DNA of 64,000 nt, taken from the NCBI GenBank assembly GCA_963727445.1, contig CAVSGI010000006.1:256001-320000 (forward strand). Reading direction: 5' to 3'. The position numbers were made by a program, and so were the translations under genes. The DNA is from an uncultured delta proteobacterium (lineage in GTDB: Bacteria > Myxococcota_A > Polyangia > Polyangiales > B10-G4). Positions 1 through 15,548 of the stretch are shown here, piece after piece (position 1 is the stretch's first letter; every line of letters starts with the position of its first letter). The notes beneath the pieces were generated by a model. It was not told the origin of the DNA. It made no database searches and saw nothing but the letters and a program-made list of their open reading frames with translations.

Positions 1-1407
1 GCTGGCGATGCCGCCGAAGAGATGGGTCACGCGCGACAGACGCCGGTACTCCGGCGGCAGCACCAGCGCGACCTCAGCCGCGCGGTCGAGCTCGTGGAAG
101 CTGAGCTCGGTCAGGCGGGTGAAGACCTCGCGCCATGCCGCGGCCTCGGCGCGCGGCTCGCCGCGGGCGTCGATGGGAGAGCCGTACCAGCGATCGCGAT
201 CGACGGCCATGTAGAGGTTCAGCCCACGCAGGCCGTAGGCGAAGCTGGCCATCGTGCAGTAGAGCGAGTCGCCATGGGTGAGCGGTGTGAACCAGGGGGG
301 CGCGCCGACGCCCATCTCCGGCGCGTAGGGGAGCTCTACCGTGCCGGTGAGCAGGAGCGTGCGCCGCTTGATCGTCCGATGCTCCCGGGCCGGGTGGTAG
401 TAGTCGAGGCCGACCAGGTCGACCACGTCGTCGATGCCCGGGATGCTGATGGGCAGGCCCGCTTCGCCCAGCGCGATGTTGTGCGTGATGGGGACGCCCT
501 CGAGCCCGGCTTTCGCCATCCGCTTGCGCATGCGCGCGAGGGAGTCGGAGATGAGCCGTTCCCGGAACTCGGCCCAGTCGAGGTAGCGGGTGAGATCTTC
601 CGGGCGCTCGGCTTCGAAGCGCGTCGGGGGATCCACCTCGTCCCAGCGCGCGTAGCGCTGCCGGTGCGCCTCGGCCGCGCGCTTGACGCTGCCGTAGCGC
701 GACTCGAGGAAGCGCTGGTAGAGCGCGATGGCGTCCGGGTGGTAGTCCTGATCGAAAGGACCGGTACGGAAGTAATACGACGCTTCGTTGTCGACCTGGA
801 GCAGCACGACCGGGCCGTCCGGATAGATGCGCGGCACCACGACCTCGGCGACCGCGTCGTACCATCGCCCCGTCTCTTCGTGGAAACGCTCGCTCGCGTA
901 GCTCGGCACCGGGAACATCTGCGGCGGGAAGGGGAGGATCACCGGGTTCTGGCGAGGCGAGCGCGCCTGGCAGGCCTTGTCGTAGACGATGCGCTCGGGC
1001 AGCCCGAAGTTCGTCATCTCCGCGTTGATGTGCGGGCCGGGACGGATGAACACCCACAGGCCCTCTTCGGCAGCCATGTCGATGAAGCGTCCGAGGTCAC
1101 GTTTGGGATCGGTCTCGCCGAAATCGAAGGCGCCGGGTCCCGTCTCGTGCACGCCCCACGGCGTGTAGGTCTCGACCATGGGCAGCCCCATGCGCTTCAG
1201 CGCCTCGAGGCCCGGCTTCCAGGCCGAAGGGTCCAGCCGGTAGTAGTGCATCGCGCCCGAGAGCAGGGGGATGCGCACGTCGCCGATCTTCAGCGTGCGG
1301 CCGGCGAGGCGCACGCGCTTCGGCCCCTTGGACCTCTGCGCACCGCTCTTGCGCCTGGCAGCGGTCTTCGCCTTCGACGCAGCCTTCTTTTTCTTCTCCT
1401 TCCCCAT
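1..1407 (-). CDS. Beta-galactosidase, glycoside hydrolase family 35-like (3' end runs off the window)
   Basis: Manual translation from ATG 1407 gives MGKEKKKKAASK...LLSGAMHYYRL...VETYTPWGVHE...FDFG...FIRPGPHINAE, the typical GH35 N-terminal motifs. It is missing from the ORF track because there is no stop in the window. Confidence 0.85.
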   Translation of the reverse strand, partial: MGKEKKKKAASKAKTAARRKSGAQRSKGPKRVRLAGRTLKIGDVRIPLLSGAMHYYRLDPSAWKPGLEALKRMGLPMVETYTPWGVHETGPGAFDFGETDPKRDLGRFIDMAAEEGLWVFIRPGPHINAEMTNFGLPERIVYDKACQARSPRQNPVILPFPPQMFPVPSYASERFHEETGRWYDAVAEVVVPRIYPDGPVVLLQVDNEASYYFRTGPFDQDYHPDAIALYQRFLESRYGSVKRAAEAHRQRYARWDEVDPPTRFEAERPEDLTRYLDWAEFRERLISDSLARMRKRMAKAGLEGVPITHNIALGEAGLPISIPGIDDVVDLVGLDYYHPAREHRTIKRRTLLLTGTVELPYAPEMGVGAPPWFTPLTHGDSLYCTMASFAYGLRGLNLYMAVDRDRWYGSPIDARGEPRAEAAAWREVFTRLTELSFHELDRAAEVALVLPPEYRRLSRVTHLFGGIAS

Positions 1408-1488
1408 CTCGTGGCGTTTCCGAGGCGGGAGATTAGCAGGGTTTGACGGCGGCCGAGTGCGGACCGCCATTCGTGGTAGAAGGCCACC

Positions 1489-1872
1489 GTGACCTATCTC
1501 CTGGTCGGTCTCGGCGGCGCGCTCGGCGCGACCCTCCGCTATGCGCTCAACGTGTGGTCGGGTCAGCTCTTCGGTCCGGGCTGGCCGTGGGGGACGATGC
1601 TCGCCAACGTGGTGGGCTCCTTCGCGCTCGGCGTGGTGATGGAGCTCGGCGTCGGTCGAACAATCTACGGCGTGGACGCGCGCATCCCGTTGGGGGTCGG
1701 GGTGATGGGCGGCTTCACGACCTATTCGAGCTTCAACCTCGAGGTGCTCAAGTTCTGGGAGCAGGGGCAGCTCGGTCGCGCCGCCGCCTACGCCAGCGTC
1801 ACCTTCGTGGTCTGCCTCCTCGCCGGCGTGGCGGGGCTCACCCTGGCGCGGGCGGTCAAGAGCGGCGGATGA
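1489..1872 (+). CDS. crcB: Fluoride efflux channel FluC/CrcB
   Basis: 127 aa with 4 hydrophobic segments and the motifs GGALGATLRY, PWGTMLANVVGSF and GGFTTYSSF. Confidence 0.95.
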   Translation: MTYLLVGLGGALGATLRYALNVWSGQLFGPGWPWGTMLANVVGSFALGVVMELGVGRTIYGVDARIPLGVGVMGGFTTYSSFNLEVLKFWEQGQLGRAAAYASVTFVVCLLAGVAGLTLARAVKSGG

Positions 1873-3941
1873 GGCCCCTCGTCCTCGTCGCGATGGTCTG
1901 TCAGCTGACGGCGGGTTGCGGCAGCGTCGAGCGTCGCCGTCCCTCGCCGCGCCCTCGACAAGTCGCCGAGGGGGTGCAGGAGGTACAGGAGCGCTCGCTC
2001 CGGGTCGCGGCGGGGAGCGGCATCAGCTGCGCGCTCGATGCCGAGGGCGTCGGGTGCTGGGGCGCCGGGAGCGCCTCCTTCGTGCGGATCGACGAGACCG
2101 CGCACGCCCTCGACGTGGCGGCCGCTGGGCGAAACGTCGCGGTGCTCCGCGAGAGCGGTGAGGTGCTCTCGGGCACCTTTCCCGGCGCCTTCACGCCGGT
2201 CGCGAGCATCGGCGCGACGCGGAGCCTCGCCGTGGGGCCGGCGCACGGCTGTGCCGCAGACGAAGAGGGGCACGTGCGCTGTTGGGGGGAGGCGAGCTTC
2301 GGGCGTCTCGGCAGGGCCGCAGAGGGCCCGGCCGCAGCGCCGCTCCCGGGCCTCGAGGACGTCGTCGAGCTCGCCCTGGGCGCGGCGCACTCCTGTGCGC
2401 TGACGCGCCAGGGCGAGGTGTACTGCTGGGGCCTGGGGGGCGACCCGGCCAGCCGCTGCCGCATGGATGACGACGGGATCGTCACCTGCGAGGGCGGCTC
2501 CGAAGGGGCCGCCCGGATCCCGCGGAGGGTGGAGCGCCTCGGCGGCGCGACGCACATCGCCGCCGCGGGACACCGCACCTGCGCTCTCACGTACGAGGGG
2601 CTCGTTCAGTGCTTCGACGTGCTTCGCCGCGACACCGAAGGACATTTCGTCCCACGACGGATCGCCGCGGTGGGCGGGGGCGAGGCGATCACCCTCGGCG
2701 AGGACTTCGGATGCGTGGTCGCGGACGGGGAGGCCCTGTGCTGGGGCTCCGACGAGCGGGGCCAGCGGGGAGACGGCGATCCCGTGATGGGGCGGCACGA
2801 GATCTCGGCGGCGGTCGGGCTGTCGGAGATCGTCGACGTGGACGCGGGGGGCAGTCATGCGTGCGCGGTACGGCGGGGTGGCGAGGTGCGCTGCTGGGGC
2901 GCGGACGACGCGTATCAGCTCGGCGACGGGTACGCGGGCTTCGACGGATCACCCACCGCGCTCGCCATCCCCGGGCTCCGGGATCTCCAGGGTGATTCAT
3001 CGCTCCTCTGCGCTCTCGGCAACGACGCCGCCGTGCAGTGTCTCGGCCACAACGACCACGGTCAGCTCGGTGATACCACGCTGGTGAGCCGCTGGGATTT
3101 CGCGCCGGTGGTGGATCTCAGCCACACCGTCCAGCTGGACGTGGCGCACGATCACGCCTGCGCTGTCGACCAGCGCGGCGACCTCAGGTGTTGGGGCAAC
3201 AACCGCCGCCTCTTCCTCGGCCCGTCGCATCGCCCGGACCCACCGACGCTGAGCGCGCCCGTTCGCGCCACCTGGCTGCGCGGCGTAGCCGAGGTTGCGA
3301 CCAGCGCGGACGGCACCTGCGTGCGACTGCGCAGCGGGCGGGTGTCGTGTTTTGGCCGCTCGTCGCGCGGAGGCGAAGCGCAAATGGGACCGATCGCGGG
3401 CATCGCGCATGCGACCGACATCGACGGAAGGGCGTCGCGCTTCGGTGCGACCGCCGCGGGGCGGGTTCATCGCTGGGGCAGCGACACCGAAGGCGCCACC
3501 TCGAGGATCGTCGAAGGGGCCACCGACGCCCAGCGCGTCGCCGTCGGCTGCACCTTCGGATGCGCCCGCTTGCGCGGCGGAGAAGTCTCCTGTTGGGGCA
3601 CGCTGCCTGGATGGCCGCCGAGCGACGCGGCCTTCGCGATCGAAGGCGTGAGCGAGGCGGAGACGCTCGAGGCAGGCTGCGATCACGCGTGCGCTTCGCG
3701 ACGCGGTGGCGAAATCCTGTGTTGGGGGGGAAACGGGCGGGGACAGCTCGGGATCGGACGCATTTCCAGCGCGGAACGCCCCAGCCCATTCCCGGTGCAG
3801 GGCACACTGCATGTTCTCGACCGCGCGACCTGCGTCGATCAGGGGGGTGGGGCGCTCACCTGTTTCGGCGAGCTTCCGGGCGTTGGTGAGCGAGCAGACC
3901 AACCGGCGCCGGTGATCGTATCGTTTTCGAGAGCCCCCTGA
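1869..3941 (+). CDS. RCC1-repeat (beta-propeller) lipoprotein
   Basis: ATG overlaps the crcB stop (ATGA). Lipobox LTAGC. Many HxCA...GxVxCWGxNxxGQLG repeats. Confidence 0.85.
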   Translation: MRPLVLVAMVCQLTAGCGSVERRRPSPRPRQVAEGVQEVQERSLRVAAGSGISCALDAEGVGCWGAGSASFVRIDETAHALDVAAAGRNVAVLRESGEVLSGTFPGAFTPVASIGATRSLAVGPAHGCAADEEGHVRCWGEASFGRLGRAAEGPAAAPLPGLEDVVELALGAAHSCALTRQGEVYCWGLGGDPASRCRMDDDGIVTCEGGSEGAARIPRRVERLGGATHIAAAGHRTCALTYEGLVQCFDVLRRDTEGHFVPRRIAAVGGGEAITLGEDFGCVVADGEALCWGSDERGQRGDGDPVMGRHEISAAVGLSEIVDVDAGGSHACAVRRGGEVRCWGADDAYQLGDGYAGFDGSPTALAIPGLRDLQGDSSLLCALGNDAAVQCLGHNDHGQLGDTTLVSRWDFAPVVDLSHTVQLDVAHDHACAVDQRGDLRCWGNNRRLFLGPSHRPDPPTLSAPVRATWLRGVAEVATSADGTCVRLRSGRVSCFGRSSRGGEAQMGPIAGIAHATDIDGRASRFGATAAGRVHRWGSDTEGATSRIVEGATDAQRVAVGCTFGCARLRGGEVSCWGTLPGWPPSDAAFAIEGVSEAETLEAGCDHACASRRGGEILCWGGNGRGQLGIGRISSAERPSPFPVQGTLHVLDRATCVDQGGGALTCFGELPGVGERADQPAPVIVSFSRAP

Positions 3942-4013
3942 TCGAATTCATCGGCGGGCTTCCCTTCTCATCGCGCGGCGACCGGCCTACCATCTCTCGC
4001 TCCGGAGGCTGAC

Positions 4014-5279
4014 ATGAAGGCGATCGTCGTCGTAGGCGCACAATGGGGAGACGAGGGAAAGGGGAAGCTCGCCGATGTTCTGGCGCCTCGGGCGAAGCTT
4101 CTCGTCCAATACGCCGGCGGCGGAAACCCGGGGCAGACGATCGCGGTCGCGGGCAACCGCCTGGTCTTCGACATCCTTCCTCCCGGACCGATGCGCAAGG
4201 GCATGGGGTGCCTCCTCGCGCAGGGGATGGCCCTCGATCCCAAGCTGCTCGTCGAGGAGCTCGACCTGCTCGCGGAGCACGACATCTCGGAGGGTGAGGT
4301 CTTCGTGTCGCGGCGCGCCCACGCCATCCTCCCGCATCACATCCTGGTCGATGAGCTGCGCCAGGAAGAGGAGGGGGCCTCCGGCGTACGGCGCCGCGGG
4401 ATCGGCCCCGCCTACGCCGACAAGCTCGCGCGTCGCGGCGTGCAGATCGGCGATCTGACGAGCGACAAGCTCGAGGACAAGCTCGCGCAGAGCATCGAAG
4501 GCTGGCGCTCCGTGATCGAGGGGCTGGGCGGCACGGTTCCGGAGGCGCGCGAGGTGGCCGACGGCTACCGTTCGCTCGGCGAGCGACTCGCCAAGCACTT
4601 CGTCGACGGCTCGAAGCTGGTGGGCGACGCCATCGCCAGGGGCGACAAGGTCGTGCTCGAGGCGCCCCTCGGGACGATGGTCGACCTCGACATGGGCGCG
4701 TATCCCTTCGTCGTCGCGGCCTCGACCATCGCCGCGGGCGCCGCGCCTGGGGTGGGCCTCGCGCCGGACGCCATCGGCACGGTGATCGGCGTCGCCAAGG
4801 CATACTCCACACGACCCGGCCGCGGCCCGATCGGCGCCGAGGTGACCGGCGACCTCGCCAAGCACCTCATCGACCAGGGCCAGGAGTACGGACAGGACGG
4901 GCGGCCGCGTCGCGTAGGCATGCTCGACATCGCGGCGTTGCGTTTCGCCAAGCGCGTCAACGGCATGGCGCAGCTCTTCCTCACCAAGCTCGACGTGCTC
5001 GCGGGTCTCGACGAGATCCCTGTCTGCGTGGGTTACGAGCTCGACGGTGAGGAGCTGTCGGAGCCTCCCTTCGAAGGGCTGTCGCGGGCGACGCCCAAGG
5101 TCGAGATGCGACCGGGATGGAAGGAGAGCCTCGAGGGGTGTCGCAGCTTCGAGGAGCTCCCCGAGGCGGCCCAGGGCTACGTGCGCTTCATCGAGGAGCA
5201 GGTGGGCGTGCCCGTCACGATGATCGGCGTGGGGCCGGACCGCGCCGCCACCATCGTCCAGAAGTCGCCCTTCGACTGA
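4014..5279 (+). CDS. purA: Adenylosuccinate synthetase (PurA) family protein with a divergent active site
   Basis: QWGDEGKGK, GIGPAYADK, KAYSTR, LTKLDVL and GPDR are colinear with PurA over the full length. GGAGG RBS. Several substrate-binding residues are substituted (see findings). Confidence 0.85.
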   Translation: MKAIVVVGAQWGDEGKGKLADVLAPRAKLLVQYAGGGNPGQTIAVAGNRLVFDILPPGPMRKGMGCLLAQGMALDPKLLVEELDLLAEHDISEGEVFVSRRAHAILPHHILVDELRQEEEGASGVRRRGIGPAYADKLARRGVQIGDLTSDKLEDKLAQSIEGWRSVIEGLGGTVPEAREVADGYRSLGERLAKHFVDGSKLVGDAIARGDKVVLEAPLGTMVDLDMGAYPFVVAASTIAAGAAPGVGLAPDAIGTVIGVAKAYSTRPGRGPIGAEVTGDLAKHLIDQGQEYGQDGRPRRVGMLDIAALRFAKRVNGMAQLFLTKLDVLAGLDEIPVCVGYELDGEELSEPPFEGLSRATPKVEMRPGWKESLEGCRSFEELPEAAQGYVRFIEEQVGVPVTMIGVGPDRAATIVQKSPFD

Positions 5280-5282
5280 TCG

Positions 5283-6327
5283 TCAGCCGCTCGCGGCTTC
5301 GACGAGCGCGTCGACCACGGGCGTCACGTCCTTGAATCCCTCGACGACGCGGTTCTGGCCGTCCCAGGCGGCGTCCACCGCGGCGGCGAAGAGCTCGCGG
5401 CTCGGGGCCTCGTCCACCACCTTCTTCGTGAGCACGTCCGCCGCGTCTTCGTCCTGGTAGAAGTCGCCGGCGACGGCCGCGCCCCGAACGAGCCCTTCGT
5501 CGTCCAGGGCGACGCCCGCGGAGATGAAACCGATGGGCACCTCGCGGATGGAAGACCAGTCGAGGCTGTCCCATGCGTCGTCGAAGCCCACCGTGGCGCG
5601 CGTCTGGTTCGCGTCCGCCGCCTCGCGCTCGGCGTCGCTCAGAGACGAGTGGTCGAGCTCGAGCTCCTTGTCCGGGTAGCGATCGACGTGTCCCTCGGCG
5701 AGGGTGCGCACCAGGTCTTCGGCCGAGCGGGGAGCCTCCCAGAATCTCGCTCATCAGGATCGGATCCTTCGCCTCGAGCGTCATCTCCTCGCGCATCGGA
5801 TAGCCGCTGAGCTCGTCGGGGAGCCAGTAGGGGCGGTCGACCGAGAGGAACGCCTCGACGAGCACACCACCATCCGGAAGACGCGACCAACCGATGAGCG
5901 CCGCCGGACGCTTGTCCACCGAGATCCATTCGCGGCCGAAGTACTGCGCGCGTGCCCCGGTGAGCGCGAGGCCGCCCATGAGGCCGCGGACGTTGCGGTT
6001 GAGCACGCGATCGCGGGGGCACTCCATCAGGACCGAGGAATGGCGCAGGCCCAGGGCCACGTAGAAGATGCCGCGACCCCCGACGCAGGTCGGCCCGCCG
6101 GTGGCTCGGCGGACCACCTCGATGCCGCGCGCACCGACCTCCTTGATGGCGAGCGCGTCGAGAGCCCGCTGATTTCTTCCGAGCACCACAGCGTCGCCGG
6201 AGAGGCTCGCGCCGTAGATGAAGGCGGGCGGCGCGTCGGCTCCCTCGAGCCCGCGGTAGAGCGCGTTCCCGATGGACAGGGCCCTGAGGGGAGTCACGTC
6301 CGTCTCGGCGATCCAACGTAGCCGCAT
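5283..6327 (-). CDS. Lipoate-protein ligase A-like protein (frameshifted near 5743)
   Basis: N-terminal part has VVLGRNQ...GIEVVRRATGG. C-terminal part (5283-5711) has the LplA C-domain-like AVAGDFY. Removing one base at 5742-5746 joins them (EIWEAPRSAEDLVRTL). Confidence 0.7.
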
Positions 6328-13607: not shown

Positions 13608-13973
<366 letters not shown>

Positions 13974-14123
13974 CGCCATGCCGCTCACTCACGCCATCCG
14001 CCGGCTTACCTCCTCGCCCCCTCCCTCGGAAATACCTCCGGTATTCCTCGGTCGGGGCCTCCGGGGGCGCTCGCCCGGCTGACGCGACTGGACGGCATCG
14101 AGAGCTATGAGGAGAAAAGGGCA

Positions 14124-15548
14124 ATGACCGAGATCCGAGATCCGAAAGACGTACTCGAGTTTGCGAAGTCGAAGGGCGCCGTCATGGTGGACCTCCGCTT
14201 CATCGACCTTCCGGGCGTCTGGCAGCACACCAGCGTGCCGATCCACCGCCTCGAGGTGGCTTCCTTCGAAGACGGTTTCGGCTTCGATGGCTCCTCGATC
14301 CGTGGCTACCAGCCGATCAACGCGTCGGACATGCTCATCGTCCCCGACGCGACGACGGCGAAGATGGATCCCTTCACCAAGCACCCGACGCTGGTGTTGA
14401 TCTGCAACATCGTCGACCCGATCACCAAAGAGCCCTACGCCCGCGACCCGCGCTACATCGCGACCAAGGCCGAGGCCTACCTCAAGCAGACCGGGCTCGC
14501 GGACACGACCTATTTCGGCCCCGAAGCCGAGTTCTTCATCTTCGACGACGTGAAGTACCACTCGAGCCCCGAGGGCTCGTTCTACGCGGTCGATTCCGTC
14601 GAAGGCATCTGGAACTCCGGCTCCGATGAAGGCCCGAACCTCGGCTACAAGGTGAAGCACAAAGGCGGCTACTTCCCCGTGATGCCCACCGACACGCTGA
14701 TGGACCTGCGCACCGACATCAGCGAGATCCTGATGGAGCTCGGCTACGAGGTCGAGGTCAGCCACCACGAGGTCGCGACCGCCGGGCAGTGCGAGATCGA
14801 CATGAAGTACAACACGCTGACCGCGTGTGCCGATCAGCTGATGTGGTTCAAGTACGTCGTGCGCAACGTCGCGTACAAGTACGGCAAGACGGCGACCTTC
14901 ATGCCGAAGCCCATCTACGGCGACAACGGCAGCGGCATGCACTGTCACCAGTCGCTGTGGAAGGAAGGCAAGCCTCTCTTCGCTGGTGACGGCTACGCCG
15001 GGATGAGCGACATGGCGCTCAACTACATCGGCGGCCTGTTGCAGCACGCGCCGGCGATCTGCGCGCTCACCAACCCGACGATCAACAGCTACCGTCGCCT
15101 GGTCCCGGGCTACGAGGCGCCGGTGAACCTCGCCTACAGCTCCCGCAACCGCTCGGCGGCCATCCGCATCCCGATGTATTCGCCCTCGCCGAAGGCGCGG
15201 CGCATCGAGGCGCGCTTCCCCGACTCCTCGGGCAACCCCTACCTGGCCTTCTCCTCCATGCTCCTGGCGGGCATCGAGGGCATCCAGAAGAAGACCTCCG
15301 CGGGCGACCCCCTCGACAAGGACATCTACTCCCTCAGCCCCGAAGAGCTGAAGGACGTCCCCACCGTCCCCCACACCCTCGAAGGCTCGGTCGACGCCCT
15401 CGAACGCGACCACGAGTTCCTCCTGGTGGGCGACGTCTTCACCAAGGACATCGTCAGCGAGTGGATCGGCTGGAAGCGCGACAACGAGATCGCGCCCATG
15501 CGCCTGCGCCCGACCCCCCTCGAGTACGAGCTCTACTACGATCTGTGA
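14124..15548 (+). CDS. glnA: Glutamine synthetase type I
   Basis: [24 protein letters not shown]...[15 protein letters not shown] and the adenylylation loop DKDIY. Confidence 0.98.

Follow-up and report, generated by a model that had tools for sequence, protein, structure and literature searches.

The present study concerns an open reading frame (ORF) at positions 4014 to 5279 of a 64,000-nucleotide stretch of DNA from an uncultured delta proteobacterium of the order Polyangiales (GenBank contig CAVSGI010000006.1, positions 256,001 to 320,000), the whole of which is referred to here as the window. The ORF encodes a paralogue of adenylosuccinate synthetase (AdSS, PurA), and represents a clade of second purA copies which is real, selected and apparently undescribed. 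With a probability of roughly 55%, its pattern of conserved residues points to a pseudoenzyme dimer which is predicted to bind guanine nucleotides, being guanosine tri- or diphosphate (GTP, GDP) or guanosine tetraphosphate (ppGpp), and to act as a regulator, its pocket for inosine monophosphate (IMP) being closed by a loop of its own. This reading is based on the finding that the guanine-specific site is intact while the reaction centre appears to have been released from constraint.

The paralogue comprises 421 amino acids (aa) without internal stops, is preceded by the sequence GGAGG five bases 5' of its ATG, and has a GC content at third codon positions of 0.89, in agreement with a first-pass annotation of this DNA which had described a full-length ORF with a good ribosome-binding site and normal codon bias. 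PF00709 and the AdSS fold span its full length, its ESM Atlas matches are PF00709 clusters only, and the protein passes the cut-off of NCBIfam model PRK01117 (420.8 versus 402 bits) and misses that of TIGR00184 (373.4 versus 395.55 bits). When compared with E. coli PurA (PDB alignment) and with the canonical PurA of its own genome, it retains GDEGKGK including D13 and K16, as well as R131, R143, R305, TKLD and GP. The substitutions listed in the same annotation are likewise real: H41 has become Q (codon CAG), A39 P, T128/T129 V/R, W309 M, EGAQG EAPLG and VTSS VVAA, and the aspartate loop GATTGRPRR has become G-QDGRPRR, shorter by one residue. The features of the gene are as follows:

4014..5279 (+): PurA-like paralogue (P0001), 421 aa, one of 51 proteins in a Polyangiales clade
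4002..4010 (+): ribosome-binding site GGAGG, from the sequence
4035..4067 (+): P-loop GAQWGDEGKGK, with D13 (4050-4052) and K16 (4059-4061) retained in 51/51; contacts from PMC11276676
4116..4139 (+): apparently released 38-42 loop GGGNPGQT, with catalytic His41 replaced by Gln (4134-4136), His in 0/51; catalytic listing from PMC1877815
4365..4400 (+): clade-specific loop E-x-E-G-A-S-G-x-x-R-R-G in place of the IMP-phosphate loop, with E118, S123 and R127 in 51/51
4431..4433 (+): Arg140 (E. coli R143), donated to the IMP site of the other subunit, 51/51; trans role from PMC11571797, Table 3
4659..4721 (+): EAPLG...VVAA segment, with Q224 replaced by Leu (4668-4670) and T239 by Val (4713-4715)
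4884..4922 (+): aspartate loop EYGQDGRPRRVGM, its QDG form in 5/51, with R305 (4908-4910) and W309 replaced by M (4920-4922) in 51/51
4983..4994 (+): TKLD guanine-recognition motif, K331 and D333 in 51/51; contacts from PMC11276676
5019..5105 (+): newly constrained residues 336-364 (P336, D344, E350, P351, G355, S357, R358, E364)

In Helicobacter pylori AdSS, GDP and the metal are bound via the P-loop, Gly39, Thr41, Lys322, Asp324 and residues 400-402 (PMC11276676), and the numbering of that enzyme was mapped onto the paralogue by motif spacing. All 51 clade members carry D13, K16, R305, K331, D333 and R143; G12, E14, G15 and G416 are present in 49/49, and position 42 is T or S in 47/49. The residues by which PurA binds Mg-GTP (D13, G15, K16, T42, R305, K331 and D333) are thus kept by the clade. 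For comparison we used 149 PurA-family representatives which are less than 50% identical to one another, among them one fragment from the clade and a few sequences that appear to be broken; K331 is present in 128 of these 149, and is more strictly fixed in the clade (51/51).

The 5'-phosphate of IMP is held by Thr121 (through both its side chain and its backbone N), by Thr230 and Asn37, and by Arg135 from the neighbouring subunit (PMC11571797, Table 3), while D13, H41 and Q224 are listed as catalytic residues (PMC1877815). Two of these three are gone in 51/51 with variable replacements, position 41 being occupied by Q (39 members), S (4), T (3), E (3), F (1) or R (1), and position 224 by F (23), L (19), Y (6), H (2) or M (1). 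T129 is absent from all 51 (Pro in 38, whereby the backbone NH is also removed), as is T239 (V in 50, I in one), and N38 is retained in 28/51. From these counts and the published contacts, the contacts to the IMP phosphate made by a subunit's own residues are lost or free, whereas the one donated to the other subunit, R143, is fixed. Proline is found at positions 39, 129, 223 and 273 in 39, 38, 30 and 21 of the 51 members, respectively, compared to 0/148 PurA-family representatives. The altered residues had been considered near-invariant in PurA, which holds for H41 (147 of 149), T129 (145) and T239 (145), but not to the same degree for Q224 (132); N38 and R143 are present in 147 and 145. Three unrelated representatives (P0264, P0130 and P0269) show several active-site departures of their own; they may be dead copies that arose independently, or their gene calls may be frameshifted.

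Relative site rates, obtained from 39 sequences each of the paralogue (out of 49) and of non-redundant PurA (out of 53) with site sets chosen by the analyst, were 1.11 in the paralogue versus 0.04 in PurA for the IMP contacts made in cis, 0.76 versus 0.04 for H41 and 1.09 versus 0.10 for the aspartate loop, the median site being at 0.76 versus 0.62. R143 evolves slowly in both (0.09 versus 0.05), and the new loop (E118, E120, G121, S123 and R127) has a rate of 0.12 versus 1.40; new constraint is also seen on M303, H108, 197-200 and 336-364, with R358 in 51/51. V273 and G298 are free in the clade, G298 being mostly lost from an aspartate loop which in the window protein contains QDG. Most of the substituted positions evolve at average rates, which suggests a pocket relieved of constraint and not one that was rebuilt. 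The 'rebuilt' substrate site of the first-pass annotation is therefore mostly unconserved, and the combination of Q41, L224 and a QD loop does not define the clade, given that EAPLG occurs in 8/51 and QDGRPRR in 5/51, the latter as a feature of a five-member subclade. AlphaFold confidence is low at 225-245, but a reading of this as disorder in the pocket was rejected, since the own-genome PurA, folded from an alignment of the same depth, has low confidence there as well.

The combination that characterizes a pseudoenzyme, namely loss of catalytic residues from a gene under purifying selection, is found here. For the window gene, the ratio of nonsynonymous to synonymous substitution rates (dN/dS) is 0.11 and 0.23 with respect to two metagenomic orthologues (L176, the nearest relative, and L179), and for the four closest genome pairs it is 0.10-0.31, the corresponding range for purA in those genomes being 0.13-0.25. 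Over all 55 pairs the range is 0.10-0.61, in which no weight is given to the values of distant pairs (0.4-0.6), since saturation and GC bias at third positions inflate them. The frame is open and full-length in 11/11 genomes, and the clade forms one side of a branch with a support of 100 in the Shimodaira-Hasegawa-like approximate likelihood ratio test (149-row tree), in line with the earlier view that the substitutions do not reflect random decay. A decaying duplicate would fit the patchy presence of the gene (8/32 genomes of family f22, and absence from a syntenic block in G022 and G093), yet it is contradicted by the dN/dS values, the full-length frames and the new invariant residues, and we regard it as scarcely credible. 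That the paralogue is an isozyme with weak or conditional adenylosuccinate synthetase activity is very improbable, as H41, T129, Q224 and T239 are found in 0/51 members and the paralogue is the sole purA in 0/11 genomes.

The search for a second, canonical purA that had been proposed for this genome found one by tblastn:

G000:C27:244835-246109: own-genome canonical purA, 48% identical to the paralogue, all motifs intact

In the region L001:7520-10110, this gene is located directly downstream of a hisZ-like ORF. A protein search retrieved 48 relatives of the paralogue (51-89% identity), all without H41, and a second search with the most divergent member as query added two, resulting in 51 clusters at 90% identity; P0080, from the first of these searches, is a PF13393 and PF00709 fusion. 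In a 50%-identity library the whole clade corresponds to one full-length representative (736 bits, the next match being at 489). Source databases assign the hosts to Sandaracinaceae or Myxococcota. A contig search within genomes returned ordinary PurAs only, which were reused as outgroup rows, and in a quick tree of 20 clade members and 21 such rows the clade falls within the Polyangiales PurAs; its stem has a length of 0.54, and the branches enclosing it have supports of 96 and 93. As judged from this placement, the clade is shown to have originated by duplication inside Polyangiales.

An order-wide profile search, in which four candidates were scored per genome and four unpublished genomes were included in the denominator only, identified the paralogue in 11/401 genomes (658-758 bits, versus at most 567 for ordinary PurA); a phylum-wide search identified it in 3/401 genomes, each inside the order. 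A purA with canonical motifs is present beside the paralogue in 11/11 genomes, so that the paralogue is never the sole copy; this purA is full-length in nine, lies in three frames in G162, and is shortened to 388 aa in G150. Pairwise identities of paralogue and purA correlate at 0.94 (36 non-independent pairs from nine genomes), which is what vertical descent would give. A DNA pattern scan of metagenomes returned 14 matches, 11 real and three by chance, and in viral contigs the same type of scan gave 0 matches with the clade pattern. The canonical PurA of part of f22 (L165-L170, L027 and L138) carries K140 to R and has its own long branch (0.34), which includes two genomes in which the paralogue was not found.

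Inhibition of PurA by GDP and ppGpp takes place at its GTP site, the mode of ppGpp being reported as disputed (PMC10912719, PMC1808444), and the E. coli PurA monomer is inactive, dimer assembly being ligand-driven (PMC6136348). According to the mechanism we propose, the paralogue would bind Mg-GTP, as well as GDP or ppGpp as competitors for that site, and would make neither 6-phosphoryl-IMP nor adenylosuccinate. The invariant E118-x-E120-G-A-S-G-x-x-R127 loop would shut the empty IMP pocket, its acidic residues standing in for IMP by pairing with R143 of the other subunit, and as a consequence a GTP-responsive dimer, and with it the GTP site, would form without IMP. The nucleotide state may then be relayed to a partner via the newly conserved residues. 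Since R143 has no other known job, PurA itself is the leading candidate for this partner: the two would form a mixed dimer, and the paralogue would lend R143 to the active subunit. We put this forward tentatively. Equally tentative is the corollary that such a mixed dimer would include the first natural dead adenylosuccinate synthetase subunit, with the loop locking the dimer and the GTP/ppGpp site providing an allosteric input on the flux to adenosine monophosphate (AMP). Otherwise the paralogue would form a self-dimer acting on some other partner, which is the likelier of the two options while still being doubtful when taken by itself. H41 mutants are inactive, and complementation between dead PurA subunits is known. 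PMC11590305 mentions heterodimers between mutant ADSS1 and ADSS2 as no more than a possibility.

A number of observations weigh against the preferred reading. The binding and activity of the paralogue are predicted from residues, and its Mg-GTP set is looser than that of PurA (rate 0.32 versus 0.09; G17, K18 and G40 vary). In G022 and G093 the surrounding gene block is kept without the paralogue, which, together with its presence in only a quarter of f22, makes the gene dispensable. With respect to a mixed dimer, the PurA that accompanies the paralogue still has an R143 of its own and thus needs no donor. Moreover, D231 is lost in 5/19 K140-less paralogues versus 1/32 others (rows not independent), which points to self-pairing; it is kept in the other 14/19, a state found in 0/10 K140-less ordinary PurAs, and as evidence on a mixed dimer the pairing of K140 with D231/R147 (which we take to be PurA interface residues) appears ambiguous. 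E82, K267 and Y269 of the second shell are invariant along with D13, K16, E14 and R305, all of which a kinase would need too; changes fixed within the pocket or close to it (T239 to V in 50/51; M at W309, S123 and R127 in 51/51) could shape a new substrate site; and position 301 is T or S in 45/51 and position 303 R or K in 47/51.

These last findings, and the long stem followed by an ordinary rate, would be accommodated by a new GTP-dependent kinase or ligase transferring the gamma-phosphate to a non-IMP substrate held by the partner's R143, S123, R127 and a hydrophobic floor (V239, F/L/Y224, M309), with a dicarboxylate possibly still being used. Such an enzyme is nonetheless unlikely, though it deserves serious attention: reaction-centre positions 38, 39, 41, 128, 129, 223, 224 and 273 evolve at or above the average rate, no conserved residue takes the place of the acid H41, a conserved operon is lacking among the 22 loci described below, and a second PurB was found in none of four paralogue-bearing genomes. 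Also in favour of the pseudoenzyme, known relatives that acquired new ligations (PurZ and a class with the motif DLGFGDAGKG) keep the catalytic His. Of the two options left by the first-pass annotation, a sensor or pseudoenzyme fits better and a new ligase less well.

A scaffold or moonlighting protein, whose function would reside in the new surface (the 118-127 loop and the 336-364 stretch) and whose GTP site would be kept for folding only, is suggested by the sites with the strongest slow-down (R358, E118, V197, G63, G355, D344 and P336), all variable in PurA. However, the guanine-specific K331 and D333 and the charged P-loop side chains are present in 51/51, more than folding should need, and this explanation has little to recommend it.

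With PurA (EC 6.3.4.4; PF00709, TIGR00184) the paralogue shares the full-length fold, P-loop, TKLD, R143 and R305, and it differs from PurA in the lost and free pocket residues, in the E-x-E-G-A-S-G loop and in never being the only copy. PurZ/PurZ0 of the phage 2-aminoadenine pathway is likewise a PurA paralogue with changed specificity, but in PurZ D13 is replaced by Ser/Gly (PMC12884076) while H52, T132 and the trans Arg are retained (PMC8342488), opposite to the clade, where D13 is in 51/51 and the His and Thr are lost. Identity with PurZ was rejected on these grounds, on a score of 62.8 versus 300 bits with NF038379, and on the empty viral-contig scan, as had been anticipated. The vWA-adjacent DLGFGDAGKG class (vWA, von Willebrand factor A) is also found in Polyangiales genomes as an additional member of the PurA family, at about 30% identity, but it retains GAQAGH and EGAQG and is distant from the clade. 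It occurs at L159:509-2841 (G001) and L163:1303-2781 (G150), with matches of similar strength in several genomes; in G001 it is downstream of two similar ORFs which are vWA-like by the analyst's reading only. HisZ, like other pseudoenzyme regulatory subunits, is an inactive paralogue of a housekeeping enzyme that has been retained to regulate a partner, as is envisaged here; it regulates another enzyme, HisG, whereas the partner of our paralogue is only a candidate.

Among 22 loci (11 genomes and 11 metagenome contigs), no pathway neighbour is conserved, and the only neighbour families common to different sub-lineages are frequent kinases and, at 2-3 loci, a PP2C phosphatase or asparaginase. 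A conserved operon was rejected, as glpD-like and tryptophan-dioxygenase genes, near 9/22 loci each, belong to one sub-lineage and in G022 and G093 the block that contains them lacks the paralogue (ORFs called there with a simple GC-frame script). PurB is present once per genome in 5/5 tested, four of them paralogue-bearing. No match to a sigma-70-like promoter or terminator was found in window positions 3700-5500. An RCC1-repeat gene precedes the paralogue and a lipoate-ligase-like gene is convergent with it; other genes in the window are:

1-1470 (-): GH35-like (glycoside hydrolase family 35) exo-beta-glucosaminidase-related gene, upstream
1489-1872 (+): fluoride exporter gene crcB, upstream
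about 1869-3941 (+): RCC1-repeat lipoprotein-like gene, upstream
13635-15548 (+): P-II (glnB-like) gene, then glutamine synthetase gene, read from translations

The RCC1 gene is absent from the corresponding place in L179. The lipoate-ligase-like gene (5283-6327, -) is interrupted near 5742 by a change of frame that reflects either sequencing error or decay; it is a single 360-aa ORF in L179, and in L176 is also in two pieces, divided at another position.

In full-text searches of a literature collection with few subscription journals, no description of such a PurA paralogue was found. All 49 scanned clade members match PurA models and are named adenylosuccinate synthase by their sources, a standing mis-annotation, and the reach of the finding is narrow, covering a few mostly metagenome-assembled myxobacterial lineages. 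PurA is positioned at the branch point between AMP and guanosine monophosphate (GMP), and is regulated by ligand-driven dimerisation and ppGpp. If our reading is correct, a selected, substrate-blind twin of PurA would constitute a new control layer at this branch point and a ready-made tool for inter-subunit complementation; if not, the clade might represent new GTP-dependent chemistry on the PurA fold.
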